A DNA stretch of 64,000 nucleotides, taken from IMG/VR virus record IMGVR_UViG_2907233695_000001, positions 100,119 to 164,118 of that record. One strand, 5' to 3'. Shown piece after piece: positions 2,467 to 59,354 of this stretch. The position numbers and the translations under genes are program-made. Below the pieces are notes generated by a model, which saw only the letters and a list, made by a program, of their open reading frames with translations, did no database searches and had not been told where the DNA came from. This stretch comes from a virus. Taxonomy: Duplodnaviria > Caudoviricetes. Each line of letters starts with the position of its first letter. Position 1 is the stretch's first letter.

Positions 2467-2486
2467 AATGAAATCATTATTTTAAT
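2467..2486. repeat. 7-6-7 quasi-palindrome copy 1 (AATGAAA-tcatta-TTTTAAT)
   Basis: Matches motif repeated at 11334, 23260, 25751, 29428, 47402, 59335. Confidence 0.65.
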
Positions 2487-2487
2487 G

Positions 2488-2520
2488 GAATCCATTTTTG
2501 TGGATTCTTTATTTTTTATT
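2488..2520 (+). terminator. intrinsic terminator
   Basis: GAATCCA-tttttg-TGGATTC followed by T-rich tract. Confidence 0.6.
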
Positions 2521-2530
2521 TTGAAAAGTA

Positions 2531-2560
2531 TTGACCTTTAAAAGCAAAAGATGGTAATTT
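2531..2560 (+). promoter_or_regulatory. putative sigmaA promoter upstream of the yonO operon
   Basis: TTGACC-18 nt-TAATTT with TG extension. Confidence 0.4.
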
Positions 2561-2649
2561 AAGTGTGCAGGGAACAACTACCAAATGTACCTGCCGAATC
2601 TAAATCTTAGAGGGAGTGATAAAATGAAAAATACAAAGGAGAAGATTAA

Positions 2650-2931
2650 ATGGGAAAAGGTAAACATTCGAGATTAACATGGGAAGACCTCTATTATGAT
2701 GGACTGATTGATGAACGGTATGAGATTTTCGATGAAGAGTCACAGAAAATTTTTAATGTAAGAGTAAATGATGGATGGGATCATCATCTACGAGATAAAA
2801 AATACATAGACGAGTGTAATTGTAACGATGACCACTTTATTGAACTGAAAAATATGTGCGAGGACTCCCCTTATTATAGAAAGCCGTTTGATCCTAAAAC
2901 AGATGATGTCTTTGTCTTTATAAATAAATAA
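2650..2931 (+). CDS. hypothetical protein
   Basis: 93 aa ORF with AAGGAG RBS. Confidence 0.6.
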   Translation: MGKGKHSRLTWEDLYYDGLIDERYEIFDEESQKIFNVRVNDGWDHHLRDKKYIDECNCNDDHFIELKNMCEDSPYYRKPFDPKTDDVFVFINK

Positions 2932-2978
2932 TACATATCAACTTTTTTTAACAAAAATAATCAGGAGTGATACATACG

Positions 2979-3119
2979 ATGAAAAACAAAGAACAATATA
3001 TTATTTGTGATGAAGAGTTGGATAACTATTATAACGGTGATGATGAAACCGAAGAATCCGTTGCTGCTGGTCTTGGTTTCAACGTAGACGATGAAGGAAA
3101 TTGGGTTCCAATGGACTAG
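2979..3119 (+). CDS. small acidic hypothetical protein (46 aa, not in ORF track)
   Basis: AGGAGTG RBS, MKNKEQYIICDEELDNYY...WVPMD*, fills gap before yonO. Confidence 0.55.
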   Translation: MKNKEQYIICDEELDNYYNGDDETEESVAAGLGFNVDDEGNWVPMD

Positions 3120-3134
3120 AGGGGGATAAATTAT

Positions 3135-11333: not shown

Positions 11334-11353
11334 ATTAAAACTCACATTTCATA
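11334..11353. repeat. 7-6-7 quasi-palindrome copy 2 (ATTAAAA-ctcaca-TTTCATA)
   Basis: Motif match 14 nt after clpP stop. Confidence 0.65.
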
Positions 11354-23259: not shown

Positions 23260-23279
23260 AATGAAATGTTGGTTTTATT
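23260..23279. repeat. 7-6-7 quasi-palindrome copy 3 (AATGAAA-tgttgg-TTTTATT)
   Basis: Motif match. Confidence 0.7.
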
Positions 23280-24732: not shown

Positions 24733-25755
24733 ATGCCTAGAAAAACATTTAAAAAGCAAATCACATCACCAGAACTGACAGAACAAATAAATCAAAAAAA
24801 TAAGAAACTGATTGATCGTTTCTTGAAGGAAAAAAATACACGATGTTCAGACACAACAATTGAAGCTTACACCAGCGACTTAAATATTTTCTTCACATGG
24901 AATCTTCTGAATAATGAAAATAAATTTTTCATTGAAATTAAGAAGATTGAATTCGCAGATTTCTTTAGTTACTGTGTTGAAGAATTAAAGTGGGGTTCTG
25001 CTCGTTTTGGACGAATGAAGTCTTGCCTTAGTTCGCTCTCTGAATTTATCATTCGATACTATGATGAAGATCATCCCAATTTTAGAAATGTTATCCTAAA
25101 AGCAATTGAATCAATGCCTCGTAACCCTGTACGAGAAAAAACGATTTTATCTGAAGAACAAGTAAATAGTCTTTTGAATCATCTTAAAAATGAAATCAGC
25201 AGACCTCAAGAAGCCTGTCTTCTCGCGTTAGCAATCGCAAGTGGTGCAAGGGTCTCTGAGTGGCTACGATTCACAACCGATATCATAGATGAAAATAACA
25301 CGGCTTTTGAAGATATGTTTCTTGAGACTACTAAGAAAATAAAAACTAAAGGCCGAACCAAGACAGGCAAAATGATTGAGAAGTATATAATTAAAGACAT
25401 TTTCCTGCCCTATTATAAAGACTGGTTGGTTGAGAGAGAAAGAATTATGAATGACAAAGGCAAGGATCATAATTCAATCTTTATTAAAAGAGATGGTGAA
25501 CCTGCCACAGTTGAGACAGTTCGAGGATGGATCGAAAAATGGGAATTATTTTTGGGAGTTCCTTTCTATCCTCATTGCCTTCGTCATTTCATAACTACCT
25601 ACATGTCTCGTCTAGGAATGTCTTCTGATTTTATCGTTGAAGTGATGGGATGGAATTCTACTGACATGGTTAAGGTCTATAACGACTTAACCGCTAAAGA
25701 AAAGAAATGGAAAGACCTAGAAAAACTGAAGGATCACTTAACTAAAACAGAATAA
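24733..25755 (+). CDS. yomM: tyrosine recombinase (YomM-like)
   Basis: SGARVSE (R), KTKG (K), HCLRH (HxxR), MGW, terminal VY (Y); sits in the tail operon as in SPbeta. Confidence 0.88.
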   Translation: MPRKTFKKQITSPELTEQINQKNKKLIDRFLKEKNTRCSDTTIEAYTSDLNIFFTWNLLNNENKFFIEIKKIEFADFFSYCVEELKWGSARFGRMKSCLSSLSEFIIRYYDEDHPNFRNVILKAIESMPRNPVREKTILSEEQVNSLLNHLKNEISRPQEACLLALAIASGARVSEWLRFTTDIIDENNTAFEDMFLETTKKIKTKGRTKTGKMIEKYIIKDIFLPYYKDWLVERERIMNDKGKDHNSIFIKRDGEPATVETVRGWIEKWELFLGVPFYPHCLRHFITTYMSRLGMSSDFIVEVMGWNSTDMVKVYNDLTAKEKKWKDLEKLKDHLTKTE

Positions 25756-25770
25756 AATCACACTTTCATT
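25751..25770. repeat. 7-6-7 quasi-palindrome copy 4 (AATAAAA-tcacac-TTTCATT)
   Basis: Overlaps the tyrosine recombinase stop codon. Confidence 0.72.
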
Positions 25771-25807
25771 CCATCGCACAAAAAAAACAAAATAAGCAAG
25801 TTTGACT

Positions 25808-25838
25808 AAGAGAGCCAAATTTACAGGTTCTCTTTTTT
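25808..25838 (+). terminator. intrinsic terminator
   Basis: AAGAGAGCC/GGTTCTCTT + T tract. Confidence 0.6.
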
Positions 25839-25877
25839 ATATCTAACAAAACAAAAAAACATAGGAGGAATTATAAA

Positions 25878-26348
25878 ATGATTGATGCAAATATCAAAGT
25901 AACAGGGCGCTTAAAAGTTGATTTATATCGCGATGGCGTACTTGTACAAGAAGGTCAATGGAGAGACAACGTTGTAACGACAGCAGGTAAAAACTCTCTC
26001 GCATCTTTGTTGAACTCTGCAAGCGCAGGTACATCTCTTGTTACTCACATGGGCTTTGGCACATCTGCTACCGCAGTTGCCGCTGGAGATACTGCACTCG
26101 GCGCAGAATTAACAATTGGATCAGCAGGATATAACCGTGTTTCTGTAACTCGTTCTAATCCATCTGGTAACGTAATTCAATACCAAGCTACTTTAACTGG
26201 AGTAACCTCTACACCTACGATTCAAGAATGCGGCCTTTTCAGTGCTTCCTCTGCTGGCACATTATTCGCTCATCAACTTACAGGAGCAGTAACTTTATCA
26301 TCCTCTTCTGACAGTCTTCAAATTACATGGCAAGTAACGTTTAGTTAA
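25878..26348 (+). CDS. tail-collar/fibre N-terminal-like structural protein
   Basis: NVVTTAG..L, MGFGT....AAGDTALGAE, IQECGLF, LQITW pattern of fibre attachment domains. Confidence 0.6.
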   Translation: MIDANIKVTGRLKVDLYRDGVLVQEGQWRDNVVTTAGKNSLASLLNSASAGTSLVTHMGFGTSATAVAAGDTALGAELTIGSAGYNRVSVTRSNPSGNVIQYQATLTGVTSTPTIQECGLFSASSAGTLFAHQLTGAVTLSSSSDSLQITWQVTFS

Positions 26349-26402
26349 TAGCGTGGCAGAGACTATGTTAAATGGTATTTTATTATTTAAGGGGGTAATT
26401 AT

Positions 26403-26693
26403 ATGGCAGTAGGTGACGTAACATCGGGATTATCTGCATCCGTAGCAAATAACGGCACAGTTAACATTCAGCCTGCATCAGGTGCGGAATGGGTTGTCCA
26501 TAACGTGTACTATTCCGGTGCGGTGGAGTTCTACATTGTGAACGGCGCGAACTCCATTAAATTCGATTCAGATACCTCTTTTGGTGCGCGTTTGGGTGCG
26601 GTATTCCACGTAAACAACACGCAATATCTGCAAATCAAAAACGTGTCGGGCGGCGCAGTCAATATTGCCTATGACGGCGTTGTAACGAAGTAG
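26403..26693 (+). CDS. small beta-rich putative virion protein
   Basis: 96 aa, AAGGGGG RBS, visibly GC-richer codons. Confidence 0.6.
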   Translation: MAVGDVTSGLSASVANNGTVNIQPASGAEWVVHNVYYSGAVEFYIVNGANSIKFDSDTSFGARLGAVFHVNNTQYLQIKNVSGGAVNIAYDGVVTK

Positions 26694-26701
26694 GTGAAAA
26701 T

Positions 26702-27481
26702 ATGAGCGTGAAATGGTTAGGCGATACCCGAGCGAATTATAAAGACCTCGGCGAACTTGTTGCAAGATATGTATTTAATGGTAATAAATCCGTATCAGTC
26801 TCTAGTGTTGATACGGTTAATAACATTTTTACAAGTACAGCACATGGTCTTACAAATGGTCAGAGGGTTGCAATATTTCTTAATCAAAATGCAGGCAAGA
26901 TACATCCCTTTACCGCTTTTCCTACAGGGTTTTCAACGAACAATTCTTATTATTATGTGGTCAATGCTACAACGGATACCTTTCAGGTATCTGCAACATC
27001 AGGCGGGGCGGCAAAAACTATAAGTGGTGGAGATATAACCAAGTGGCATTTTGAAGTGATAGGAGCGACTCTAATAAGCATTTCTAATCTTCCACCCGCC
27101 CCAAAATATAGATGTATTTTGTATGGCACAACAGCGTCGAATGTTTCGTTAATGCTTTACCCTAGTGCGCCTAACAACTGGAACGATAACAGTTCGATAA
27201 GGTACGCAGATAACACATTCGGTAACTGTAGTCTTGGCAGTAGTGCGAATTATTGGAACTATGTAGAAGCGTATTTCGATTCAACTGGAATCGCCAAAGC
27301 AAGCTATAAAGGAAAAACAATAACGGCTTCACCGTCGGCGGCGACGTTTACAGGTACAAGTATAACTGACGCTTTTGTATTTACAAACACGACATTCGCT
27401 GATTCCTTAATTTCGGGGATTACGTTCAATTGTGGGGAACTAATTGCTAACGGAACGGTAATGGAGGTGTATACGGCATGA
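26702..27481 (+). CDS. putative fibre/receptor-binding protein
   Basis: FTSTAHGLTNGQRV..YYVVNATTDTFQVS.T.GG module; S/T/G-rich. Confidence 0.5.
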   Translation: MSVKWLGDTRANYKDLGELVARYVFNGNKSVSVSSVDTVNNIFTSTAHGLTNGQRVAIFLNQNAGKIHPFTAFPTGFSTNNSYYYVVNATTDTFQVSATSGGAAKTISGGDITKWHFEVIGATLISISNLPPAPKYRCILYGTTASNVSLMLYPSAPNNWNDNSSIRYADNTFGNCSLGSSANYWNYVEAYFDSTGIAKASYKGKTITASPSAATFTGTSITDAFVFTNTTFADSLISGITFNCGELIANGTVMEVYTA

Positions 27482-27912
27482 AAAGTGCAAACTTCGATGC
27501 GCTAACAGGTGAAGTTACTTATGTAGATGCACCCGTGAATACACTATCGCTTTCCGAAGCACAAACACAACAAATTACATTAATTACAAATGATTATCGA
27601 AGGGCAACTCAAACTTTTCAATCTTCAGCATTAGGCTCTGTTTTTACTTACTTAGCCGATGACACATCACTAGGTAAATTTAACGCAGAGTATGCTTATG
27701 TTAATAGCACTGACTATGACGGACTACCTATTTTATGGTATACCTTGGAACAAGGTGGAGTAAACCATACAAAAGACCAGTTCTGCCAAGTTTGGAAAGA
27801 CGGAAGGCTGTATCTTCGGGATAAATTCAATAAATGGGATACGCTGGTTAAACAAATTAAATCAAATACCAAGGAATCAGATGTTCCTACAGTAATGGCA
27901 ATAACGTGGTAA
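27478..27912 (+). CDS. DUF4376-like fibre assembly chaperone
   Basis: FQSSALG, HTKDQF, V.AITW; resembles C-terminus of 55408..56397. Confidence 0.6.
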   Translation: MKSANFDALTGEVTYVDAPVNTLSLSEAQTQQITLITNDYRRATQTFQSSALGSVFTYLADDTSLGKFNAEYAYVNSTDYDGLPILWYTLEQGGVNHTKDQFCQVWKDGRLYLRDKFNKWDTLVKQIKSNTKESDVPTVMAITW

Positions 27913-27929
27913 GGGCAGGTGAATAACCC

Positions 27930-29426: not shown

Positions 29427-29427
29427 A

Positions 29428-29447
29428 GATAAAACATTCGTTTCATA
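29428..29447. repeat. 7-6-7 quasi-palindrome copy 5 (GATAAAA-cattcg-TTTCATA)
   Basis: Immediately after the stop of the last cassette gene. Confidence 0.7.
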
Positions 29448-29460
29448 GGATTATTCTTAA

Positions 29461-29500
29461 TAAAAAAACTGCATCTATAAGTATAGGTGCAGTTCATTTT
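29461..29500. terminator. bidirectional terminator
   Basis: AACTGCATCTATA-ag-TATAGGTGCAGTT, A tract on left and T tract on right, between convergent genes. Confidence 0.7.
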
Positions 29501-29519
29501 GTTAAGGAATTTTATGTAG

Positions 29520-29831
29520 TTATACTTTATCTCCAAAATCTTTTTGAATTTGTCTTAGCCGTTCTAGTTTGGCTTGCATTTCAAAATCTGCTTCATTCAC
29601 AAACAAATGAGATCGCAATCCACCGAAGAATGCGTCATATGCTTCATCATATCCATCAAAACCATACTTGTCGAGAAGCATTCGCTCATATTCGATAACG
29701 TGTTGTTCAAGAATGTGCGCAACATAATTACCCAATTTGCGCTTGTCTACATCGGCTAATATCTGCAATTTATTTTTTAATCCTTTATCGAGGACGAATG
29801 TAAACCGTTCGTTATTGTCTGCAATAGCCAT
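29520..29831 (-). CDS. ribbon-helix-helix DNA-binding protein
   Basis: NERFTFVLDKGLKNKLQILADVDKRKLGNYVAHILEQHV is an RHH pattern; AGGAG RBS on minus strand. Confidence 0.75.
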   Translation of the reverse strand: MAIADNNERFTFVLDKGLKNKLQILADVDKRKLGNYVAHILEQHVIEYERMLLDKYGFDGYDEAYDAFFGGLRSHLFVNEADFEMQAKLERLRQIQKDFGDKV

Positions 29832-32167: not shown

Positions 32168-32248
32168 TATATAATTATGCACATAGCACCCCTTTTGGAT
32201 TATAATGGATTAATACATACCATTAATTTTAAAGGGGTTGTTCTGTAC

Positions 32249-32638
32249 ATGCATAACCATATAAGGGTTTGTTTTATCCTTTTATTTGTTTTTCTGATTG
32301 TTTCAGGTTGTTCAGTTTCCGCAAATGGTATATCTACTTTCAAAGACGATTCAAAAGTTGTTGCTAAAACATTCCATGATTTTATGAGTGGAAATAGTCA
32401 AATAACTGATCAACAACAAAGAAAAATTGATTTTTATATGAATCATTTTAAAGAACCTGATAATTTAAATAAATTAAGTGATAATGATAAGCAAATACTT
32501 GGTGGATTAACTCAGTTATATGTTGACTTAGAACTGTATAAAGAAGCGGTTAAAGAAAATAATTTAGAAAATAAACAGAAGTATATGAATGAATATAATA
32601 AGTATGAGGTTAAAGTTTTTGAATTACTGAACCAATAA
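32249..32638 (+). CDS. lipoprotein (possible superinfection exclusion/moron)
   Basis: Signal peptide with lipobox VSG-C from ATG 32249; AT-rich; own terminator. Confidence 0.65.
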   Translation: MHNHIRVCFILLFVFLIVSGCSVSANGISTFKDDSKVVAKTFHDFMSGNSQITDQQQRKIDFYMNHFKEPDNLNKLSDNDKQILGGLTQLYVDLELYKEAVKENNLENKQKYMNEYNKYEVKVFELLNQ

Positions 32639-32647
32639 AAATTCTTA

Positions 32648-32677
32648 GGAAGCGATATGATTAATCGCTTCTTTTTT
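32648..32677 (+). terminator. intrinsic terminator
   Basis: GGAAGCGAT/ATCGCTTCT + T tract. Confidence 0.7.
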
Positions 32678-32703
32678 ATTTCAAAAAAGGAGTGATTAAA
32701 ACA

Positions 32704-35700
32704 ATGGCAGATGATTTAAAAATTATTATTCAAGCTAGTCTAGATACATCCACTAAAGCAATTGGTGACTTAAATAATCAGATAAATGAAATAGCTAAAA
32801 AAGTATCAGGTTTAAATTTGAATGTTAAAGTTGACTCGCAGAATTTAAATCAACTAACTAATCAAATTGAAATCATTTCTAAGCAGTTGTCTCAAACAAA
32901 GAAAATTGAGGTGGTAGACAGTTCATCGATTTCTAATGGTCAAAAACTATACGCCACACTTCAAGAAGTAATGGATGAGTATTCAAAATTAGGTAAAGTA
33001 AAAATCACGAATGAAACTCTTAATCCTATTACAAAGGAATTAGAATCATTTTCAATTGCTGTTGAAAACGCAGATAAAAAAATCGAAAAATTAAAATTTG
33101 ATATGTTAAATGTTGCTAATGGTGATAACATTTCAAAAATGTTTACTCCAACAAAATTAAATCAAGTAAATCCTATTGAATCCAATAATAAAGCACTAGA
33201 GAGAATGTTGGATGAAGCCTATAGGATGAACGCTGATTTTGATAAAAAAGCTGAAGCATTAGACAAAATACATTGGCAAGCATTAAGAGATGACCAAGCA
33301 AGAGAAGAAGCATTAGACAAAATGCACTATCTTGCTTTACAAAAAAATCGAGAACTTGATTTAAAAGCTCAGGAGCAGGCGAACAAAGATGCAGAAGCAT
33401 TAGATCGCGCTCATTTTAATGCCATACGTGATAACAATAAACGCATTGAGGATATGGATAAGTTACACTATCTTGCGCTTCAAAAAAACAAAGAATATGA
33501 TACGAAGCAAACTCAGGAACAACAAAAACTTGGAACTAATACAAGTCTAATAAGTTCTGTGAGTGGTAGCACAAATGTAGCTGGATTTAAACAACTCGCC
33601 CAATCAGTTGCAGGGGCAGATGCTGAACTTATAAAAGTTACAACAAGATTAGATAAAACGTTCGGCTCCATTCAAGAAATGAATGTTCGAGTTAAAGAGG
33701 GAGAGAAGTATTGGCGCAACTATACTGTTTCTGTTGTTGAAGCAACCGGAGAAGTGTATAAGTTAGATAGAGGGTTAACTACCGCATCTCAAAACTTAAC
33801 ACTAGGCGATAAACTAAAAGAGATGGCTAAGTCTATTCCGTTATGGTTTGGCGGTATGACACTATTTATGTCAGGAATCCATTTTATTGAGGATTTCGCC
33901 AAGTCTATTTCCGAAATAGATGCTAAGATGGCAGGTTACGTTCAGACTAATGAGGCATACTTTAACTCTGAACAAAAAATAAATGATGAAACACATAAAT
34001 TTATACAAACTACTCATGACCTTGGAGCAGAATTAGATAGTGTTTTAGAATCGGCACGCTTGTATGGTCGTATGTATAAGGACGTTAACGTAGTTCAGGA
34101 ACTCGTAAGGCAATCAACTAAATTATCTACAATTGACCTCGTATCTCTTGGTGATGCAACTAAAGGTATGGAGGCAATTCTTGCTCAGTACCATGTACAA
34201 TTAAATAACGTAAATGACGCACAGGTAATAGGCAATAATTTACTCGATAAATTTTCTAAGGTAGCACATGATAGCGCAATTCCTGCAAAAGACTTATTGG
34301 CTGCTTATGAGCGAATGGGTTCAGTGGCAAACCAAACAGGAGTTAGTGTAGATTTCATGAATGGCTTACTCGCATCAGGTTTTAGAAATACGGCTTTATC
34401 AGGTGAAAATTTGGGTAATATGTGGAAAACTGTGCTTGGTAACATCCATACTGATAAAGCGGTTAGTGAGATTGAGCGTTTAGGTGTGGCAACCAAAGAA
34501 GTTGTTAATGGTACAGAACAATGGAGAAAAGCCGAAGATATCCTACTTGATTTATCTGTTAAGGTCATTGGCAAAAATGAAGACTTAACAAAGTCGTACG
34601 AGGATATTGCAAGAGGGGTATATCAGTACCAGAAGTTAGCAGCTTCCCTCGATCTTGGCTCTATTGTTCAAGGTCAAGCGGCGAGTATAAATAGTGTTGG
34701 TAGTACATCGCAGTATTTAGTAACTCAAATGGATACTATCGAAAGAAAATCTAAGCAAGTTCGAGCAACTATGCTTGAACTATTTAATACTGCTGGAGAT
34801 GACGGTCTTAGAAACTCAATAAAAAGTATACTTGATGTTGTTGATCAATTTTTAATTGGGCTTTCAAAAGTTCCGTCAGGAGTCTATGAAATAATTGGGG
34901 TTTTGGGTGGTCTTGGAACTGCTTACCTTGCGTTAAAAAACCCTGTATCTTCTTTAATTACCGCAATTGGTGTGTTGACTACTTCAAACGTAACAAATAC
35001 TACTACTACAACGGCACAAACAGTTGCAACCGAAGCATCAACTGTTGCAACTACTGCCAAAACCGTTGCTACTGAAGGTGCAACAGTAGCTGTGAATACA
35101 ATGACAGCGGCAGAAGCTAGATCGGCTGTTACATTAGCTGCTGCGACAGCAGGTGCATCCATCTTGGTTGGAGTACTGGCTGCTTACGTCATGAATGCAG
35201 GGGAAGCAACAAAAGCCGAGAAAAATTTGAATGATGAGCGAGATAAATCTATTTCTGCACAAGAACAGCAATACATGCAAGCAGAAAAACAGATTCAAGT
35301 TATTCCACAATGGGTTAATCTCCATAATGAATTAACTAAAGCGTTGGAAAGTGGTACATTATCTGCTGAAGGTCAAACAAAGGCTAAAAATGATTTAGAT
35401 AAAGTATCAAAAGCACTTGCTGATACAATTGGTCAAGAAGGATTTGCTCAATTACAAGCAGCACAATTTACTGATCAGGCTACGCAACAAATTATCCAAT
35501 CATTAATTAAGCGTAAGGCAGCATTAAAACAATCTATGCTTGATACTTTAAATGAAGATTCCTCAAGTTTAAGTGATAGAGAATTGTCTGCTTTACAAAA
35601 AAGAAATGAAGCAAATAGAGAACTCGATAAATTAAATGGACAATCCGATGATGCTCCCTTTGGTGACTTGGCTGGTACAGGTGCTCTTAATGCAATTAAT

Positions 35701-38700
35701 AGAAAGAAAAATATTGACAAATTTAAAAAGCAACAAGAAGAGGCAAACAAAGAATTAGATGATATTAAACGCAAAAATCAAGAAATCGAAGATAAAAAAA
35801 TAACTGTAACAGCAGACTTAATTAATTTAAATAATTTAAATGGAGAAAGCGGAAAGACACAGGGAGAAACGACCAAGGACATCAAAGCGAATTTCGATAA
35901 TCAAATGGCAGACTTCCGTCATTTGGTGAACATGAAGGCTCAAGGTTATACGGATGCAGTACAACAACTTGATAAACTAAATCAAATACGTGATCAATTT
36001 GCCGACAAACTTTCGGATAAAGACCTTTATGGAATCGATGAAGAAATTCAACGTGCTAAGGATGGCATTGGTTTAAAAGCAAAAGGTTATCCAGCAGGTT
36101 CTTCATCGGTTACTGCACCATCAATCCCAACTGTTGAAGACGTGTCCCTACAAAAAGAATCACTTCAACTTGCCAAATCAGCATATGAGGTTACGAAACA
36201 AAATATCGATTTACTTGATAAAAAAGCAAAAAATTATGAGAAGGAAAAGAATTATTCTGATGCAATTAAGACAACAAACGACCTGCTTATTGCACAGAAA
36301 CAAGCCCTTGTTGACTTGGATACAGCTAAGAATAACGTATCGAAAGATGCAGATTCAATAAGAAACGATCCTCGCTTCTCTTCTTTAGGTAATAAGTTTA
36401 GTCAAGATGGTAAATCGTTTGATGCTTGGTTTGACTCCCAAGGCAATGCCTCAAAAGAGTATCTGGATTACATACAAAAACTTCAAACTGAGCAATATAA
36501 CCTGCTGAATGGTAAAGATAAATTATCTAAATCAGAAGAAAAAGAAAACAAACAGTTAGCCGAGCAAATAAAAACTGCAAAGCAAGTTTTTGACGCTCTT
36601 CAGGTTCAGAAAAAAGGTTATGTTGAGTTAACAAAAGAGCAAGATGCTTTGAGGGAATCCACAAACGCAACAAACATTTCCTTGGAGCAGTTAGCATTTG
36701 ATAACTCTAAAAATTGGATTACTGAACAAAAAACTTTAGGCTTGCTTCCACTTCAAGATGAAGAGGCAGCTTGGAAACGTGTCGCAGAAGCTCATCAAGA
36801 TAACGCTAAAATGCGTATAGAGGCCGAGAAAGAAATCAAACGTGTCCATGATGAAACTGTTAAAGCGGAACTTGCCGATATTGACAAACAAATCCAAGCC
36901 TCTAAAGATTTGGATGGAGTATATGATAAAACTTCTTCCAGTTACAGAGACCATTTAACAGATGAAATCAATCTTATCAAACAAAAAAATGATGTTCTCA
37001 ACAATGAAACTGAACAAATCTTAAAGAGTAATACTTTAACCGATCTACAAATAGCACAACTTGCAAATTACAACAAAATCTTAGCGGATAACCAAAAAGC
37101 AATCCACGAAGATGAATCTAAAAAGATGCAAAGTGTCATTGATGAGCAGAATACTCATCTTAAAAACCTTGACGCTCAAATCCAAGCATCCGATACTCGT
37201 CTTAAAATGTACGAAGAAGGTTCTAAGAATAATAAGCAACTCGATGTACAGAAATACGATCAAGAATTACTTAATAACATCGATATCATTAAACAACGTA
37301 TCGCAGCAGAAAAGCAACATGAGCAAACAATCCGTGACCAAATGACTACAGTTGGTTTAACTGAATCAGAATGGAAAAGTCTTAATGATCAATTGAGAAC
37401 ATCTATTGATACTCAGATAAAGCTGACTCAATCTATCCAAGATGCTAACGATAAATTAAAAACTCAGTTGAACAATGTTGCCGACCAAGTTATTGCGGTA
37501 TATAAAAAGTTTTATGACACTCAAAAGAAACTATCTACGGATTCAATCACAGCAGAGAAAAAAGCACTTGACGATCAGCATCAAGACTTAGTTAAAAATC
37601 TTGACACAGAAATTAAAAAGTATGAAGAACGTTATAAAGCTCAAGTTAGACAGATTGATGAAGTTACCGCTACTGAGGATTACAATCAACAGTTAAAGAA
37701 ACTTCAAGATGAAGCAGCGACATACACCAAGCAACTCAACGCGATGCAAATGGATGATAGCACTGATGCAAAAGCAAAACGTGTAGAATTGCAAACCCAA
37801 TTAGCGACTAAAACGGATGAGATTAACAAGCTAACTCGTGATAGAGAAAAAACGTTACGTAAACAAAGTTTACAAGATGAACTTGATGCGAAGAAGCAGG
37901 AGTTAACGGCACAAAAGGATTCAAGCACATTTGCTATTGATCAATTGAATCAGCAATACCAACAAACTCACCAATATCAGCAGATGACTTATCAAGATGC
38001 TGTAGACTATCTTGATAAACAAAAAACTGCATCTGAACAATATTATAGTGACTTAGTTAACAATGAAGAAAAGTTTACCCAAATCCGTAACCAAATTCTT
38101 CAAGGTAATTTTGCACAGGTTCAGAGTGACTTTGCTCAATTTAGTAGTTTTCTACAATCCAATTCGCAAGCTATTGGTCAGAATATTTCCAGTAGCATAT
38201 TAAGTACGATGAATTCATTAACTACAACAATGAATACTATCTCGATGGTAATGGGGAATAACTTATCAATATTACAATCCAAACTTGGTGCTGTTGGAAC
38301 TGGTGTCACAAGTCAAGTTACTACCGCTGTCGAAGGTCTACTCACTAAACTTAAAGAACTTGACCAATTGAAATTCACTGGATTAACTAATTCATTGTCT
38401 CAAGTTGACCAAAAGTTTAAAGATATGATGATTAGTGCAATGCAAGCCAATGCTGCTGCTTATAACATGACTAGTGACGCAAATCAGCAAAAATCATTGC
38501 ACGATAAGAACGTTGCATTGGGCAGTATCCTTGGACTCACTTATGATCCAAGTGGTGTGTGGAAAGATGCCCAAGGAAATATTGTGGTTAATGCGATGAA
38601 TGGCAATACAACGCCACCTTACATACCACCCACGCCTACTTACAATCCTACACCATCCTACAATAGTGGCGGTGGTTCTTATAGCGAGAATGTAGGTGGA

Positions 38701-39123
38701 ACAACTTATACTTCTGATCGTCCCACTATTTATAATGGTGGTGGCGAAGGTTCTCCAATGGGTTGGATTGGGGACACGCCTATTTACCATACAGGAGGCG
38801 AAGTTGGTAAACCTGCATTAGCCCCTGATGAAATGCCAGCGATTCTTAAACTTGGCGAATATGTTTATACGGAAGCAATGCAATCGAAACTAAGAGAAAT
38901 CATTTCAAGACCAATAAACTTTCTGAGTAAAATTGCAAATAGTCTACCAAGTATGTCTATGCCTAATTTAGCAACAGCATCTCCTTCTGCTGGTGGAAAC
39001 AAGACATTTAATATGAGTGTTAACATTGGGACGGTCACAGGAGATAAAAAAGGTGTAGATTTCTTCATGAATGAAGTGAGGAAAGAAGTAAATAAACTTG
39101 GTGGAGATTTTGATTTTGTGTAA
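32704..39123 (+). CDS. tail tape measure protein
   Basis: About 2140 aa, TP901-like core (SGENLGNMWKT), long coiled coils, C-terminal YHTGGEVG..EMPAILKLGEYV; precedes Dit. Confidence 0.9.
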   Translation: MADDLKIIIQASLDTSTKAIGDLNNQINEIAKKVSGLNLNVKVDSQNLNQLTNQIEIISKQLSQTKKIEVVDSSSISNGQKLYATLQEVMDEYSKLGKVKITNETLNPITKELESFSIAVENADKKIEKLKFDMLNVANGDNISKMFTPTKLNQVNPIESNNKALERMLDEAYRMNADFDKKAEALDKIHWQALRDDQAREEALDKMHYLALQKNRELDLKAQEQANKDAEALDRAHFNAIRDNNKRIEDMDKLHYLALQKNKEYDTKQTQEQQKLGTNTSLISSVSGSTNVAGFKQLAQSVAGADAELIKVTTRLDKTFGSIQEMNVRVKEGEKYWRNYTVSVVEATGEVYKLDRGLTTASQNLTLGDKLKEMAKSIPLWFGGMTLFMSGIHFIEDFAKSISEIDAKMAGYVQTNEAYFNSEQKINDETHKFIQTTHDLGAELDSVLESARLYGRMYKDVNVVQELVRQSTKLSTIDLVSLGDATKGMEAILAQYHVQLNNVNDAQVIGNNLLDKFSKVAHDSAIPAKDLLAAYERMGSVANQTGVSVDFMNGLLASGFRNTALSGENLGNMWKTVLGNIHTDKAVSEIERLGVATKEVVNGTEQWRKAEDILLDLSVKVIGKNEDLTKSYEDIARGVYQYQKLAASLDLGSIVQGQAASINSVGSTSQYLVTQMDTIERKSKQVRATMLELFNTAGDDGLRNSIKSILDVVDQFLIGLSKVPSGVYEIIGVLGGLGTAYLALKNPVSSLITAIGVLTTSNVTNTTTTTAQTVATEASTVATTAKTVATEGATVAVNTMTAAEARSAVTLAAATAGASILVGVLAAYVMNAGEATKAEKNLNDERDKSISAQEQQYMQAEKQIQVIPQWVNLHNELTKALESGTLSAEGQTKAKNDLDKVSKALADTIGQEGFAQLQAAQFTDQATQQIIQSLIKRKAALKQSMLDTLNEDSSSLSDRELSALQKRNEANRELDKLNGQSDDAPFGDLAGTGALNAINRKKNIDKFKKQQEEANKELDDIKRKNQEIEDKKITVTADLINLNNLNGESGKTQGETTKDIKANFDNQMADFRHLVNMKAQGYTDAVQQLDKLNQIRDQFADKLSDKDLYGIDEEIQRAKDGIGLKAKGYPAGSSSVTAPSIPTVEDVSLQKESLQLAKSAYEVTKQNIDLLDKKAKNYEKEKNYSDAIKTTNDLLIAQKQALVDLDTAKNNVSKDADSIRNDPRFSSLGNKFSQDGKSFDAWFDSQGNASKEYLDYIQKLQTEQYNLLNGKDKLSKSEEKENKQLAEQIKTAKQVFDALQVQKKGYVELTKEQDALRESTNATNISLEQLAFDNSKNWITEQKTLGLLPLQDEEAAWKRVAEAHQDNAKMRIEAEKEIKRVHDETVKAELADIDKQIQASKDLDGVYDKTSSSYRDHLTDEINLIKQKNDVLNNETEQILKSNTLTDLQIAQLANYNKILADNQKAIHEDESKKMQSVIDEQNTHLKNLDAQIQASDTRLKMYEEGSKNNKQLDVQKYDQELLNNIDIIKQRIAAEKQHEQTIRDQMTTVGLTESEWKSLNDQLRTSIDTQIKLTQSIQDANDKLKTQLNNVADQVIAVYKKFYDTQKKLSTDSITAEKKALDDQHQDLVKNLDTEIKKYEERYKAQVRQIDEVTATEDYNQQLKKLQDEAATYTKQLNAMQMDDSTDAKAKRVELQTQLATKTDEINKLTRDREKTLRKQSLQDELDAKKQELTAQKDSSTFAIDQLNQQYQQTHQYQQMTYQDAVDYLDKQKTASEQYYSDLVNNEEKFTQIRNQILQGNFAQVQSDFAQFSSFLQSNSQAIGQNISSSILSTMNSLTTTMNTISMVMGNNLSILQSKLGAVGTGVTSQVTTAVEGLLTKLKELDQLKFTGLTNSLSQVDQKFKDMMISAMQANAAAYNMTSDANQQKSLHDKNVALGSILGLTYDPSGVWKDAQGNIVVNAMNGNTTPPYIPPTPTYNPTPSYNSGGGSYSENVGGTTYTSDRPTIYNGGGEGSPMGWIGDTPIYHTGGEVGKPALAPDEMPAILKLGEYVYTEAMQSKLREIISRPINFLSKIANSLPSMSMPNLATASPSAGGNKTFNMSVNIGTVTGDKKGVDFFMNEVRKEVNKLGGDFDFV

Positions 39124-47401: not shown

Positions 47402-47421
47402 AATGAAACATAGGTTTTATG
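47402..47421. repeat. 7-6-7 quasi-palindrome copy 6 (AATGAAA-catagg-TTTTATG)
   Basis: Motif match 5 nt after stop; downstream flank resembles that of the 23260 copy. Confidence 0.7.
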
Positions 47422-56405: not shown

Positions 56406-56903
56406 ATGAATCTACAACCTTGTGATGTTATTTTCGTTACAAAACGTAAAAATGAAACTTTGAGAGATATCATCATACGTAAATTAATCTCTTGGGCTAC
56501 TGATTCGGATATAACCCATTGTGCCTATTTCGTTTCAGGCAACATTGTGTTCGAGGCAAACGGATTTAGAACATGCGGCTTCCAGAGCTTAGATGAATAT
56601 GAGTATAAAGTCAAAAGATTAACATGCGACTTAGAAACAAGGAAAAAGATATTGGAGTGCATTCTTGAAACTGAAGGTAGGAGCTACGGTTACATGGAAT
56701 GCGTGGCCTTATTCTTTAGACGTAAATTAGGCATGTATTTTTACTATGATGATCCTGATAAATTCATATGTAGCGAAGAGTTAGCAAAAGCGATGTATGA
56801 CGTTACTGGTAAGTTTATGAATATAAAAGATAAAACACCTACTTTTGACTTGTCGCCTCAAGATTTATGGGAAAGTGAATATTTGGTTGAAATTGAAGGG
56901 TAA
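56406..56903 (+). CDS. permuted papain-like NlpC/P60 (YiiX/YebB-type) hydrolase
   Basis: LQPCDVIF, ITHCAY (His), GRSYG, FICSEELA (Cys), SPQDL. Confidence 0.78.
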   Translation: MNLQPCDVIFVTKRKNETLRDIIIRKLISWATDSDITHCAYFVSGNIVFEANGFRTCGFQSLDEYEYKVKRLTCDLETRKKILECILETEGRSYGYMECVALFFRRKLGMYFYYDDPDKFICSEELAKAMYDVTGKFMNIKDKTPTFDLSPQDLWESEYLVEIEG

Positions 56904-57035
56904 TATATGGGTAAGGTCTCCTGCGTGGTGACGGAGACCTTAATCTTCCCATTTGTTTAAGGCTGCTCCTTTGTTGGAGTGGTCTTTTTGTGTTGTTTAA
57001 ATGAAAAACTTTAATCTTAGGAGGAATTATTCAAT

Positions 57036-57218
57036 ATGGAAAAACTCAATCTTTTTTACTGTTACGACTCTAATCTTGCTAAATACTTGAAACAGGATAA
57101 AAATATCCCCTACCTAACTAAAGCAAGACATCTAGATACGCACAAGGTATTCCACCTATTTCTTATTTCTAATGTATTACAAGAGGCATTAGAAGAGTAT
57201 AAGAGCAAGAGTAGGTAA
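57036..57218 (+). CDS. small DUF5659-like protein
   Basis: FYCYDSNLAKYLK....Y..KARH..T.KVF.LF.....LQEALEEY; similar layout to 47534 ORF; GGAGG RBS. Confidence 0.6.
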   Translation: MEKLNLFYCYDSNLAKYLKQDKNIPYLTKARHLDTHKVFHLFLISNVLQEALEEYKSKSR

Positions 57219-57223
57219 CAGAA

Positions 57224-58690
57224 ATGGACATTAATCAAGGGAATATAATCAAGCAACTTAGCGATTTATATCTAATACAACGAGGGCATTATTTAATTCA
57301 AGATAAAAATTATGGTTATCGTGATTATCGAAAAGGTGAAATCAGCAAATCAACAGGTAAAAAATATAAAGCCTTATTAGATTATATGATTGAATCACAT
57401 CTAAATGGCGAGTATACAGTTGGGACATTTTGCAAAGAAGTTTTCACAAAATTTATAACTATTGACGTAGATTATAAAGGAAACTTGGAAATGTCTAAAT
57501 TGATCACAAATAAAATTAGTGAACAATTTACCGATTGGCACATTCCAGAACACTATATTAGTTTTAGTGGTAACAAGGGTTATCACATCGATATATTCTT
57601 TGATGATTTAATCCAATGGAAACATGCGAAAAAGTTTTATGAACACCTAATAAAGAGTTTAAACTTGGATGACAAGAAGGTGGAATTTCGTCCAACAAGT
57701 ACTCAGGGCGTTAAGTTGCCTCTTGGAATACATCAGGAAACAGGTAACTATTGCGGATTCTGCTATCCAGATAACCTGACAGTAATGAGCAAGGAGAACA
57801 GTGAGGAATTTTTATTTAATATCAAGAAAATCCAATCAGAAAGTATATTGGATATTATCGGTTTAGATATAAATACCTCAGAAAAGATCGATACAAAACA
57901 AGAAAAAAATAAAATTATTAGTACAGAAGATGCCATTAGTCCACACAAACCATTACCAAGTTATGAGCAAAGCGAAGATTCTTCGATAGACCGAGCACAG
58001 GATTTGCTTCTTAATGGTTTAAAAGTACAAGGTAGCAGACACAATTCGGTATTATTGCTTGGGATGTATTTGAAATATTGCGGATTAAGTCAAGAGCAAA
58101 ATAGAGCAGAACTTTATGCTTGGATGGAATGGCAGAATCCTAATACTTATACAACTCCATTGGATGAATGTTGCAGAGATATTGATCAATTAACAAAAGA
58201 CATTTATGAAAAAAACTATAATTTATCTGCAAACCAGAAAGACTTGACGGTTACATGCGATGAAATTAAATGGATAATGAACAATTGTCCAGAGAAAAAT
58301 CAGAAACTAATTACATACGCTATGTTGATTCACTCTAAACGTCATGCAAATAAGCAAGGCGTTTTTTATATGCCATTTAAAGACATAGAAACCGCAACGG
58401 GATTGTACGATCAAGCCGTTCAAGCACAGGTAAATAAATTAATAAAACTTGGAGTTGTCGAGTGTATAGAACGAGGAAGGAAACCGAAGGGTAAGGGATT
58501 AGCGAAAATGCTACCTAATCTGTATCGAATGAATTATCAAAGGAGTCTCGAATCTGATGGTTTAATTGAAACAGAAGTTTTTACCACTGAGGAATTGGAC
58601 AATTTTGATGTGTGTTTGAGATTTTATTTTTCTGATAAGGAATTAAGGAAAAATTTATCGCAGAGACAATATAAAAGTTTACTTGGGTGA
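57224..58690 (+). CDS. archaeo-eukaryotic primase (AEP) + PriCT-like + winged-helix protein
   Basis: ITIDVD (DxD), SFSGNKGYH, VKLPLGIH, GSRHNS..L..YL (PriCT), C-terminal DIETATGL..QVNKLIKLGVVE..PNLYR wHTH. Confidence 0.78.
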   Translation: MDINQGNIIKQLSDLYLIQRGHYLIQDKNYGYRDYRKGEISKSTGKKYKALLDYMIESHLNGEYTVGTFCKEVFTKFITIDVDYKGNLEMSKLITNKISEQFTDWHIPEHYISFSGNKGYHIDIFFDDLIQWKHAKKFYEHLIKSLNLDDKKVEFRPTSTQGVKLPLGIHQETGNYCGFCYPDNLTVMSKENSEEFLFNIKKIQSESILDIIGLDINTSEKIDTKQEKNKIISTEDAISPHKPLPSYEQSEDSSIDRAQDLLLNGLKVQGSRHNSVLLLGMYLKYCGLSQEQNRAELYAWMEWQNPNTYTTPLDECCRDIDQLTKDIYEKNYNLSANQKDLTVTCDEIKWIMNNCPEKNQKLITYAMLIHSKRHANKQGVFYMPFKDIETATGLYDQAVQAQVNKLIKLGVVECIERGRKPKGKGLAKMLPNLYRMNYQRSLESDGLIETEVFTTEELDNFDVCLRFYFSDKELRKNLSQRQYKSLLG

Positions 58691-58955
58691 ATATTGTTTA
58701 CAATTGTTAATTAATTATGATTACATTTGCTCCTTGTACTTACCTCACCCTTTAGATTCACAGGAAAAGTTCAAGGTCAAGAGATTCCTTAAATATAATA
58801 AATATATCTATTAATAGTGATTTCGCATATCACACTATTTTAGTCGGGTATAAGATTATTAATAAATAATGTATTGTACCCCAAATCGTACAACTTACTT
58901 TTAGTAAGTAATAAAACAATCCTCATACGAGGGTTAACATAGATTCCACTTTTAT

Positions 58956-58987
58956 GAGGCTGTCTAAGGGGCAGTCTCTTTATTTTA
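58956..58987 (+). terminator. intrinsic terminator
   Basis: GAGGCTGTCT/GGGGCAGTCTC + T-rich tail. Confidence 0.55.
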
Positions 58988-59015
58988 TATATATCAAAAA
59001 CAAGGTGGGGTAACA

Positions 59016-59339
59016 GTGCCAAACAATGAAATGAGTAATATTGAGGAACGCTTAACACGATTGGAGACGAAATTCGAACTTGTATTTCAAACTTTTACAG
59101 ATGCAATTAATCGTCTAGAAACAAAACTTGACAAACGAGACGATACCTTTGTAACTAAAGACTATTTTAATGGTGAGATGCGTCTGAGAGATGAGAAGAT
59201 AAATGGTCTTCAAACGGCATTGGATCAGGTGAGACAGGAGAAGAAAGAAACAAAGTCTGCATGGCCTATTTGGTTACAAACCATTGGTACTCTTGGAGCA
59301 ATGTTTGTGGCTATTATGGCTTTGTATGCAAGCAAATAA
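59016..59339 (+). CDS. XhlA/BhlA-like lysis-associated membrane protein
   Basis: ERLTRLETK coiled coil + single C-terminal TM helix at start of lysis block. Confidence 0.6.
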   Translation: MPNNEMSNIEERLTRLETKFELVFQTFTDAINRLETKLDKRDDTFVTKDYFNGEMRLRDEKINGLQTALDQVRQEKKETKSAWPIWLQTIGTLGAMFVAIMALYASK

Positions 59340-59354
59340 AAGAACGGTTTCATT
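59335..59354. repeat. 7-6-7 quasi-palindrome copy 7 (AATAAAA-gaacgg-TTTCATT)
   Basis: Overlaps stop codon of 59016..59339. Confidence 0.72.

Follow-up and report, generated by a model that had tools for sequence, protein, structure and literature searches.

Junction sites and neighbouring genes

The window analysed here, 64,000 nucleotides of a 164-kb phage contig (C13) in an assembly of 7.56 Mb, carries seven short quasi-palindromes, each a 20-mer found exactly where the initial annotation had placed it. AATGAAA-TCATTA-TTTTAAT (2467..2486) lies 4 nt past the stop codon of ORF 2056-2463, with a terminator-like hairpin after it. ATTAAAA-CTCACA-TTTCATA (11334..11353), 14 nt past ORF 10727-11320, is upstream of the YonG-like/terminase packaging module, and many relatives have a site at a similar place, ~0.9–1.9 kb upstream of the terminase gene. 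AATGAAA-TGTTGG-TTTTATT (23260..23279) is found 60 nt past a gene (22211-23200) that, by synteny only, may occupy the tail-tube position, and ahead of a YomO-like gene (23363-23860); this site has a terminator hairpin before it and a second palindrome 16 bp after it, and some relatives carry insertions at the junction.

Next on the plus strand is the gene for a YomM-like tyrosine recombinase of 340 aa with conserved catalytic residues (24733..25755), whose TAA stop is contained in the left arm of the site AATAAAA-TCACAC-TTTCATT (25751..25770). DNA homology to relatives stops at this site. From there, a hypervariable slot (25771..32691, plus strand) extends from the recombinase gene to the YomI-like tape-measure gene (32692..39123, plus strand), its conserved right border; the slot measures ~6.9 kb here and, in relatives, anywhere from ~0.15 kb to at least 10 kb, the genes inside it being unrelated. 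Within it, GATAAAA-CATTCG-TTTCATA (29428..29447) lies 2 nt past ORF 27930-29426 and adjoins an RHH-like gene (29520-29831) that runs convergently on the minus strand. AATGAAA-CATAGG-TTTTATG (47402..47421), 5 nt past ORF 46522-47397, is upstream of a DUF5659 gene (47462-47719), and AATAAAA-GAACGG-TTTCATT (59335..59354) overlaps the stop codon of ORF 59016-59339. Near the right end, a large serine integrase with a Resolvase domain is encoded on the plus strand (62548..63972); it is the presumed integration enzyme and thus leaves the tyrosine recombinase, intact as annotated, without a role in integration.

The earlier description of the sites was confirmed in its details. Stop-to-site distances in the ORF table are 2–60 nt or an overlap, and the placement at gene or module boundaries holds. 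Read as ATAAAA..TTTCAT, the sites at 11334, 25751, 29428 and 59335 are on the plus strand and those at 2467, 23260 and 47402 on the minus strand, the proposed split of four and three. G/C is confined to one arm in 7/7 window sites and in 28/37 sites on the contig, where 18.5 would be expected (p=0.0017). ATAAAA-N6-TTTCAT is matched exactly by 5/7 window sites and with one mismatch by the other 2/7; 11 sites match at ≤1 mismatch (2.9 expected; 0/100 shuffles reach 11), and 13 of the 19 exact matches in the whole assembly fall on the phage contig. The core AT(A/G)AAA-N6-TTT(C/T)AT is far above chance on C13, with 37 core sites, nearly all of them intergenic, and a scan of T[AG]AAA-Nx-TTT[CT]A returned 37 copies at x=6 versus 2–8 at any other spacing within 3–10. 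The seven sites are best seen as that part of a genome-wide set of ~37 joints which falls in the late region, a motif for which we found no published description in the literature. Its arms are symmetric, the six-base centre holds no information within a genome, and duplicated centres number zero within C13 and zero within SPbeta. The arms, AT(A/G)AAA and TTT(C/T)AT, are the predicted recognition site of a two-fold symmetric DNA-binding protein.

Conserved centres and replaced genes in related phages

At spacing 6, the motif occurs 37 times in C13, 36 times in SPbeta, 50 and 52 times in two Paenibacillus prophages, 13 times in a Tsamsa-like phage and 8 times in a gut phage, with no copy in SPP1 or SPO1. 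Judged from sequence, it is specific to a lineage comprising SPbeta, Tsamsa-like phages, and gut and Clostridium relatives, which implies a phage-encoded reader. All motif-bearing lineages that were examined have a YomM-type gene.

G136 and G137, two prophages from the clade to which the window belongs, have 29 centres in common where chance predicts 1.5 (P<0.001), all on the same strand and all collinear. The 28 intervals between them are far less alike: 15 gave no blastn or tblastx match, 9 show partial similarity and 4 are homologous. Centres are even better kept than the R/Y positions of the arms. SPbeta and phi3T show the same pattern, with 23 common centres (chance 0.56), again all collinear, whose flanks are homologous on both sides in 9 cases, on one side in 9 and on neither in 5. 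Together, collinear centres that are kept while the intervening genes are replaced suggest that the sites are addressed joints for module exchange. The positions of homology breakpoints, proposed as a check on this idea, point the same way: among SPbeta relatives, homology blocks end 3–20 nt from the site centre at 9/10 motif junctions, compared with 11/29 other junctions (Fisher p=0.008). Over the whole genomes of SPbeta and phi3T, 11 of 54 block ends are at sites (0.56 expected), the other 43 (~80%) lying away from them. The window phage itself has a private set of centres, having only 2–3 in common with G136 and G137 (chance ~1.1), and our search found no close relative of C13. For its own seven sites we infer gene exchange by extrapolation from these relatives.

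Proposed addressed crossover and a candidate recombinase

How might such joints work? We propose that the 6-bp centre between the arms serves as an address, different at each genome position and kept at that position across relatives. In a cell that contains two related genomes, DNA would be broken and rejoined solely between joints with the same centre, such that genes or gene blocks between joints would be exchanged exactly at gene boundaries and gene order would be kept. Unlike centres within one genome could not recombine, and the phage would not delete parts of itself. A requirement for identical overlap regions of 6–8 bp is a textbook trait of tyrosine recombinases, and the site geometry fits the core site of such enzymes, as had been noted. 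That the sites serve as exchange joints is, in our view, highly probable; the complete reading, i.e. fixed crossover joints for gene swapping in SPbeta-like phages with the YomM-like recombinase as candidate enzyme, we consider an even call. The sites fill nearly the whole gap from a stop codon to the next ribosome-binding site, and selection for intact genes alone would therefore also put breakpoints at site edges. Also against the joint reading, the arms are 6–7 bp long as compared to 11–13 bp in dif, lox and FRT, and most SPbeta/phi3T homology breaks are off-site. Arms of 6–7 bp are typical of helix-turn-helix operators, too.

Since tyrosine recombinases need identical overlaps, and since its gene ends in a joint beyond which lies the late region's most variable slot, the Cre/Xer-type YomM-like protein (24733-25755) is the best candidate enzyme. 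It keeps R173, K204/K206, H281-x-x-R284-H285, W307 and Y316, and the R, K, HxxR, W and Y are kept in 23 clade members. A site lies ≤70 nt past the recombinase stop in 10/12 relatives (8/10 loci plus G136 and G137). In the latter two, it is 11 nt past the stop of an SPbeta-type YomM. Across the loci, the DNA from there to the tape-measure gene is unrelated. By sequence, the only PDB match of the window recombinase was 4a8e, an archaeal XerC-like protein (E 5e-6), with XerH and XerS not among the matches of this search, while the solved structure closest to SPbeta YomM is Cre (E ~0.002). Several observations count against YomM. In the SPbeta protein, Lys replaces the second catalytic Arg (Arg-II), although recent exchanges at sites are seen among SPbeta-group phages, and the site nearest to yomM is 416 nt away in SPbeta and ~1 kb away in the Tsamsa-like and gut phages. 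An alternative enzyme is a second intact tyrosine recombinase, YopP-like, on the same contig (C13:92095-93147). Taken on its own, the notion that a phage tyrosine recombinase performs the exchange falls slightly short of an even call, and that this recombinase is YomM can be put forward only tentatively.

Other explanations and related systems

The joints could also operate independently of YomM, with phage recombination proteins using the 17–19 identical bases of a shared joint, perhaps after a site-specific nick or cut by another phage protein reading the palindromic arms. The collinear centres fit this idea equally well; a YonJ-like exonuclease and a YotM-like resolvase are common to C13, SPbeta and the gut phage, SPbeta has a Sak4-like annealase, and the Lys in SPbeta YomM as well as the distance between site and recombinase gene in SPbeta, Tsamsa-like and gut phages would cease to be problems. 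However, 17–19 bases are very short for an annealing-based route, and R/Y arm differences at same-centre joints reduce perfect homology further. Homology alone would require neither palindromic arms nor a fixed 6-bp centre, and no candidate for the nuclease was identified. We regard this route as unlikely. Somewhat less probable still is a role as stoperator-like operators or roadblocks, scattered over the genome and bound by a dimeric regulator that insulates or silences transcription across the accessory-gene arrays; their overlap with mosaic boundaries would then only reflect that dispensable genes adjoin where they sit. A 5-6-5 layout around an uninformative centre is classic helix-turn-helix dimer geometry, most homology breaks occur elsewhere, and most dispersed phage repeats solved to date are regulator sites, SPBRE/MrpR from the same family being one (PMC10516654). 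Like the stoperators of cluster A phages such as L5, and like the dyad-symmetric 17-bp palindromes that cluster O phages carry without an assigned function, the motif comes in at least 30 short copies genome-wide, mostly in short gaps between genes (PMC9283540; PMC4351075). But stoperators, to which the immunity repressor binds, are asymmetric and aligned with transcription, and the cluster O repeats are reported to lie apart from insertions, deletions and rearrangements, with which the present sites coincide. A protein reading only the arms would leave unexplained why 29 identical centres stay collinear while 15/28 segments and flanks are replaced, and why centres are better kept than arm positions. 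Inspection of the early arm by eye gave no link of sites to sigma-A-like promoters, and no helix-turn-helix protein common to all motif-bearing lineages was found at the sensitivity used.

The initial annotation had raised a possible integron-like system, in the strong version of which YomM would capture circular cassettes at a primary site by its gene and shuffle them among all sites. Its appeal is plain: a tyrosine recombinase gene, an adjoining site and then a hypervariable slot, which in one relative reads recombinase, site, three small ORFs, site, tape measure and in another recombinase, site, tape measure, along with an early arm built of arrays of single small genes with imperfect palindromes between them. 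Yet all centres differ, which would keep a cassette site from recombining with a different resident site, and they stay at fixed addresses in an order kept across relatives, the reverse of what free shuffling would give. The majority of blocks inserted into the slot lack a site on each side, and neither a cassette promoter nor an attI-like architecture was seen. In integrons, attC sites of 57–141 bp recombine in folded single-stranded form and the cassettes are freely mobile; the present sites are 18-bp and of duplex type, with no sign of circular cassettes. We consider capture of this kind very improbable, all the more as ~80% of SPbeta/phi3T breaks are off-site. The earlier reading is thus partly supported: its observation is confirmed and exchange at sites is borne out in relatives, but capture of circular cassettes and the integron analogy are not. 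We are equally doubtful of an RNA-level role, be it a hairpin or a protein-binding element between cistrons that controls translational coupling or mRNA processing. It would account for the upstream stop codon in the left arm (20/55 loose sites), for the ribosome-binding site 1–3 nt past the right arm at the majority of early sites (24/37 have G at +3/+4) and for its near-fixed place past the right arm in the Tsamsa-like phage as well. The predicted hairpin, however, is unstable (mean -0.6 kcal/mol for the 20-mers versus -0.2 for shuffles), and the commonest arm pair on the sense strand is A opposite C (17/37). Either orientation is found upstream of genes, late-region copies are 100–200 nt from the next start, and centres kept by position would find no explanation.

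Among known systems, the proposed addressed joints resemble the dif modules of Acinetobacter plasmids, which are bounded by pdif (XerC/XerD) sites and for which the mechanism was inferred mainly from comparison (PMC6449649). There as here, many sites with inverted arms and a 6-bp centre lie on one replicon, in accessory regions, bounding gene modules; these modules are found in varied genetic contexts, and the inference is comparative in both cases (PMC6449649). But a pdif site measures 28 bp (11-6-11) and is served by host XerC/XerD, as opposed to 18 bp, 6-bp arms and a phage-encoded candidate enzyme; pdif modules travel between plasmids whole, whereas here fixed addresses with private centres remain in order and their content is replaced. 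Site numbers differ as well, with 37–52 per genome here and mostly 1–8 (up to 23) per pdif plasmid. Partner sites of the Xer/Cre family need identical centres. Its single-recombinase modules XerS/difSL and XerH/difH have the site adjoining the recombinase gene and arms ending in GAAAA/TTTTC by the central region (PMC5357621), both of which recur here, and the window protein is of similar length (~340 aa versus 354–362 aa for XerS/XerH and 343 aa for Cre). Xer modules and Cre/loxP nonetheless have one site per replicon with 10–13-bp arms and act in dimer resolution or circularisation, unlike dozens of short-arm sites with differing centres. The PeSL (promoter-early stem-loop) cassettes of T4-type phages are short elements flanking small accessory genes in hyperplastic regions, for which modular shuffling at gene boundaries was proposed, but they are composite promoter-terminator motifs (PMC2839356, PMC4122927). 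The present sites are not promoters, given that many abut a ribosome-binding site. PeSLs are also longer than 18 bp and probably work via homologous recombination between copies, and they are not known to have palindromic recognition arms or position-specific centres.

Lastly, the motif had alternatively been suggested to be SPBRE, a repeated SPbeta element bound by MrpR (YopR), a protein of tyrosine-recombinase fold (PMC10516654). Both are repeated elements within the same phage family, but the identity is refuted: derived here from ten ChAP-seq promoters (PMC10516654), SPBRE is TATACATATTWTTTGTATTTG (ATACA-N7-TGTAT), a different element, of whose geometry C13 has 0 copies and SPbeta 6, located at promoters. 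C13 does encode an MrpR homologue, at 28% identity.

A spaced palindrome at gene boundaries

What recurs between the genes of this phage? The window is the late arm (G000:C13:100119-164118) of contig C13, which measures 164,118 bp at 35% G+C within an assembly of 7.56 Mb and 51% G+C. The contig is phage-like along its entire length, with ~95 kb of early genes, mostly small and on the minus strand, followed by the plus-strand late arm. This arm encodes homologues of SPbeta YonN, YonJ, YonG, YonE, YonD, YonB, YomO, YomN, YomI, YomH and YomG, as well as of the terminase YonF (70% identity to the SPbeta protein), and has a serine integrase at its end. C13 starts with GTTGGCC (C13:1-8) and finishes with GGTTGGCC (C13:164111-164118); a search for a longer terminal overlap found none.

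The initial annotation had picked out seven 20-mers in the window, at 2467, 11334, 23260, 25751, 29428, 47402 and 59335. All are present at these positions, and their orientations and distances to the preceding stop codons were correctly described. We refer to them as junction sites, AT(A/G)AAA-N6-TTT(C/T)AT, that is, two 6-bp inverted arms flanking a six-base centre; ATAAAA-N6-TTTCAT is matched exactly by five of the seven and with one mismatch by the other two. The observed motif count was reached in none of 100 shuffles, and C13 holds 13 of the 19 exact matches in the assembly, with just six across the 7.4 Mb of host genome. The cleanest control for the reality of the motif is the spacing scan: T(A/G)AAA-Nx-TTT(C/T)A occurs on C13 37 times at x = 6, against 2–8 times at the other spacings from 3 to 10, and looser RAAA/TTTY arms give 54 intergenic matches at x = 6 versus 5–17 elsewhere. 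Non-coding DNA, which makes up 12% of C13, is touched by 30 of the 37 strict sites.

In a frequency matrix, the information falls on a symmetric pair of 6-bp arms, (A)T(A/G)AAA and TTT(C/T)A(T), around six positions that carry none within the genome; outside the arms, each position holds at most 0.3 bits, the ribosome-binding-site signal excepted. Symmetric arms and an uninformative centre point to recognition of duplex DNA by a two-fold symmetric protein. The previously noted rule that one arm carries the G/C extends beyond the window, since 28 of the 37 sites combine one A-type with one G-type arm (18.5 expected, p = 0.0017); in sense orientation the pairs are A..C (17), G..T (11), A..T (5) and G..C (4). 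Mixed arms are likewise in excess in the Paenibacillus prophage G137 (38/52, next to 28/37 in C13), and between G137 and a second such prophage, G136, both arms have flipped together at four shared joints (TAAAA..TTTCA to TGAAA..TTTTA), keeping the asymmetry. SPbeta and a Tsamsa-like phage have A-type arms only.

The seven window sites form the sparse, late-region part of the set, whose density peaks in the early arm. There, the upstream stop codon often lies inside the left arm, the next ribosome-binding site follows 1–3 nt beyond, and dense arrays space their sites 200–400 bp apart. At five places (window 23279-23340; C13:20431, 36502, 37430 and 44179), a second palindrome of the type AAAACCCTTATAAATAAAGGGTTTT, containing TATAAATA, lies exactly 16–17 bp from a junction site; it looks like a bidirectional terminator.

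The motif recurs in a recognizable set of phages. SPbeta has 36 core sites at spacing 6 versus 0–10 at other spacings, and among its 5-bp inverted repeats at spacings 5–7, TAAAA-N6-TTTTA leads by a wide margin. Loci surrounding the terminase in 47 relatives contain 88 sites at spacing 6 versus 30–47 elsewhere, and further sites were counted in two Paenibacillus prophages (50 and 52), a Tsamsa-like Bacillus phage (13), a gut phage (8) and a Clostridium perfringens locus (7). The Bacillus subtilis phages SPP1 and SPO1 have no sites and no spacing-6 peak, and the host chromosome is without such a peak, apart from one small cluster. Because the motif is restricted to a phage lineage, the protein that reads it is expected to be phage-encoded and old. 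The exceptional host cluster (G000:C64:26397-27307) groups, within 900 bp, three of the five matches on its contig (ATGAAAGCACGATTTTAT, ATGAAAGAGCAATTTCAT and ATAAAACATGGATTTCAT) in an island of 35–38% G+C, with a small resolvase gene ~2.5 kb off; tblastn of C13 proteins gave only a weak serine integrase match there (32% over 76 aa), at about the resolvase position.

Several other functions could place a short repeat between genes. A generic AT-rich or host-factor signal is at odds with the missing peak in SPP1 and SPO1, as well as with the low counts on two host contigs of lower GC (1 and 5 matches). A promoter is unlikely, as many sites abut a ribosome-binding site that a transcript begun there would lose. 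The inverted arms might instead fold as an RNA hairpin, which is also unlikely: the 20-mers are unstable (mean −0.6 kcal/mol), and the commonest pair on the sense strand sets A opposite C. KOPS-like polarity for the FtsK-like ATPase does not agree with the interleaved site orientations, and neither a lone dif-like resolution site nor Cre-like circularisation, taken as the only role, explains the dense arrays or the intergenic restriction.

The initial annotation had itself offered another alternative, namely that the sites are operators of MrpR, the SPbeta repressor with a recombinase fold, which binds the element SPBRE. We derived SPBRE from the SPbeta sequence as the element common to ten MrpR ChAP-seq promoters (PMC10516654). 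It is TATACATATTWTTTGTATTTG, or ATACA-N7-TGTAT, and thus unrelated to the junction motif; this geometry occurs six times in SPbeta and not at all in C13, and MrpR peaks were reported at SPBRE promoters only (PMC10516654). The two elements are distinct yet sometimes neighbours: in SPbeta (NC_001884), junction sites at 76170, 99497 and 129296 lie near SPBRE at the MrpR-controlled promoters aimR, yorE and yosX, in the case of aimR just upstream of it.

Six-base centres kept in order between phages

Comparing breakpoints calls for relatives. No close relative of the window phage turned up: megablast against the phage collection returned no match, relatives found through the terminase share only 65–72% DNA identity with it, and a viral-contig scan with the 25751 site, centre included, gave 23 matches, none in an equivalent context. 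The comparison was therefore run on other genome pairs. In SPbeta versus its relatives Goe13, Goe11, SPbetaL8 and phi3T, the expectation that indel breakpoints coincide with the sites was borne out to the extent that homology blocks ended 3–20 nt from the centre at nine of ten motif junctions versus 11 of 29 others (Fisher p = 0.008), the complete 18-mer being common to both genomes irrespective of which flank was homologous. Genome-wide, 11 of 54 block ends between SPbeta and phi3T fall at sites (0.56 expected), but the remaining 43 lie elsewhere. Part of this association is expected from selection alone, because the sites fill gene gaps.

The centres are more telling. In SPbeta and phi3T, 23 centres match exactly, against 0.56 by chance, and their order is fully collinear; both flanks are homologous at nine, one flank at nine, and neither at five. 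In G136 and G137, members of the window phage's clade whose terminases are ~78% identical to its own, 29 centres are identical (chance, 1.5), without a single difference in strand or order. The 28 intervals that they delimit comprise 15 that lack nucleotide or translated similarity, nine that are partly similar and four that are homologous, and between these two prophages the centres are conserved more than the variable A/G and C/T bases in the arms. Recognition of the arms alone would leave conserved centres without a reason; the centres act like addresses, with exchangeable DNA from one address to the next.

C13 has just two or three centres in common with G136 and G137 (chance, ~1.1), and at one that it shares, GGATTC, the flanks are unrelated among all four genomes; C13 thus has its own address set. 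At the level of sequence, the comparisons establish a duplex recognition site confined to one lineage, centres that are specific to their position and conserved in order, and replacement of the DNA between sites. Mainly on the basis of the collinear centres, we consider it probable that the sites are exchange joints; exchange at the seven sites of the window phage would be an extrapolation from its relatives.

An intact recombinase beside one site

Which protein could act at these joints? The window encodes a YomM-like tyrosine recombinase of 340 aa (24733-25755, plus strand), whose match to PF00589 (E = 1e-20; 74.7 bits against a cut-off of 27.1) agrees with the genome scan. It is 26% identical to SPbeta YomM and has more than 1000 homologues, the best 120 listed being 61–88% identical, several of them on phage-sized contigs; among 136 genomes of the window phage's family, no match was found. 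Throughout an alignment of 23 clade members, R173, K204/K206, H281, R284, H285, W307 and Y316 either do not vary or are conserved to at least 90%, so that the catalytic set of tyrosine recombinases (Arg-I, Lys, His-x-x-Arg-II, His/Trp and the Tyr nucleophile) is complete in the window protein.

Gene order around it is constant: YomO, YomN, recombinase, a variable stretch, and the tape-measure gene. The variable stretch, ~6.9 kb in the window, has unrelated contents among relatives, where it measures between ~0.15 kb and at least 10 kb. Against its nearest relatives, only the recombinase gene of the window phage aligns (75–79% identity), and homology ends at the site. A site lies at most 70 nt after the recombinase stop codon in eight of ten loci, each time with a different centre (binomial P ~4e-7 against a 10% base rate, for loci that are not independent). 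In G136 and G137, which have an SPbeta-type YomM, it follows 11 nt after the stop, and a YomM-type gene was found in all motif-bearing lineages examined. The sequences thus show an intact recombinase linked both to a site and to the late slot that varies most.

From this gene–site adjacency, the sole link, we infer that the YomM-like enzyme may bind and recombine the core site. Counting against YomM as the enzyme are the short arms, the Lys at Arg-II in the SPbeta protein, the distance between gene and site in other phages (416 nt in SPbeta, ~1 kb in the Tsamsa-like and gut phages), and a second intact recombinase, YopP-like, in C13. That a phage tyrosine recombinase makes the exchange falls a little short of an even prospect in our judgement, and for YomM itself we put the prospect lower still.

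Several features of these genes deserve mention in their own right. Like SPbeta, C13 encodes three proteins with a recombinase fold, the YomM-like one and, outside the window and both on the minus strand, a YopP-like (C13:92095-93147) and an MrpR-like protein (C13:57393-58361); the R..HxxR..H..Y set is intact in the YopP-like and missing from the MrpR-like protein. SPbeta YomM and SPbeta YopP both have Lys at the second catalytic Arg. Within one clade, the same genomic slot is occupied by two YomM types that are 26% identical to each other, one in C13 and the SPbeta type in G136 and G137; the latter two have common centres and C13 a different set. At two relatives' loci (L064:8673-10001 and L070:8616-10001), YomN and the recombinase are separated by an inserted HNH_repeat gene of ~450 aa that overlaps the recombinase start by 1 nt at its end, and this boundary has no junction site. 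At another (L067:11563-14854), the tape-measure gene is apparently divided into two PhageMin_Tail parts, and a 340-aa ORF and further genes lie between and after these, an arrangement that could be due to an intervening element or to mis-assembly.

A proposed addressed exchange and its nearest counterparts

Tyrosine recombinases require identity of a 6–8-bp overlap. Exchange would take place at sites between genomes that carry the same centre, different centres would guard a genome from internal deletions, and YomM would be the catalyst. Carried to its full extent, this would give SPbeta-like phages a natural equivalent of recombinase-mediated cassette exchange with heterospecific sites: a single YomM-type recombinase would read ~35–50 identical-armed sites with 6-bp centres as addresses, co-infecting relatives would swap accessory genes, including anti-defence genes, slot by slot with gene order unscrambled, and clades with different centre sets, such as the window phage versus G136 and G137, would be recombinationally isolated 'dialects'. 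We regard this complete picture as speculative, and doubtful in all its parts together. It bears on the old question of how accessory and anti-defence genes come to be reshuffled in large temperate phages that yet keep a working genome order, for which modular theory invoked 'linker sequences' at the boundaries of genes. A concrete, testable candidate answer is a short palindrome for protein recognition that carries a six-base address specific to its position, with the order of addresses conserved across phages with unrelated intervening genes, and with a conserved recombinase, catalytically intact by its residues, beside one site. If true, it would explain the sharp gene-boundary mosaicism of SPbeta-like phages, give YomM a function, and provide a natural set of orthogonal recombination sites; if false, the strict conservation of centres still wants explaining. 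As SPbeta and phi3T carry the system and grow on laboratory Bacillus subtilis, the idea is directly testable.

Our literature search found no paper on the motif or on yomM function, and the 1999 SPbeta genome paper might have noted the repeat. The nearest known systems are pdif/dif modules, XerS/XerH modules, the PeSL cassettes of T4-type phages and the palindromes of cluster O mycobacteriophages, and none of these is known to have centres that are specific to their position and keep their order. Gene modules in varying context with recombinase-type sites at their borders, as in the pdif/dif modules of Acinetobacter plasmids (PMC6449649), have a parallel in the fully replaced G136/G137 intervals, whose bounding sites are kept, and in a similar pattern between SPbeta and phi3T; pdif sites, however, are 28-bp XerC/XerD sites read by host enzymes, whereas the phage motif is 18 bp long and missing from SPP1 and SPO1. 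In single-recombinase Xer modules, the site adjoins the gene, the arms end in GAAAA/TTTTC, and the site is conserved despite low protein identity (PMC5357621). The site-beside-gene arrangement of XerS/difSL and XerH/difH is found here at most loci, G136 and G137 included, but not in SPbeta, the Tsamsa-like phage or the gut phage. Xer/dif sites have two ~10–11-bp arms around a 6–11-bp central region, in contrast to 6-bp arms and a 6-bp centre here, and serve multimer resolution with one site per replicon, as opposed to 37 in C13.

The integron-like system proposed initially is not supported, as fixed addresses do not fit the free capture of circles: integron cassettes change position and order, and the shared centres are strictly collinear in both phage pairs. 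Moreover, attC sites are 57–141 bp long, with R''-L''/L'-R' organization and extrahelical bases, unlike 18-bp sites with nothing conserved beyond the arms. The stoperators of cluster A mycobacteriophages, to which the immunity repressor binds, are asymmetric and keep a single orientation relative to transcription, whereas the arms of the junction sites are symmetric and their sense pairs mixed. The 17-bp palindromes of cluster O, still unexplained, were reported not to coincide with rearrangements (PMC9283540; PMC4351075). Finally, four unrelated-looking viral contigs (L091, L093, L100 and L101) have a conserved stretch, ..CTTGTCRGCCTCTCGCACGATA.., directly upstream of ATGAAATCACACTTTCAT, possibly a conserved joint whose left element is longer.
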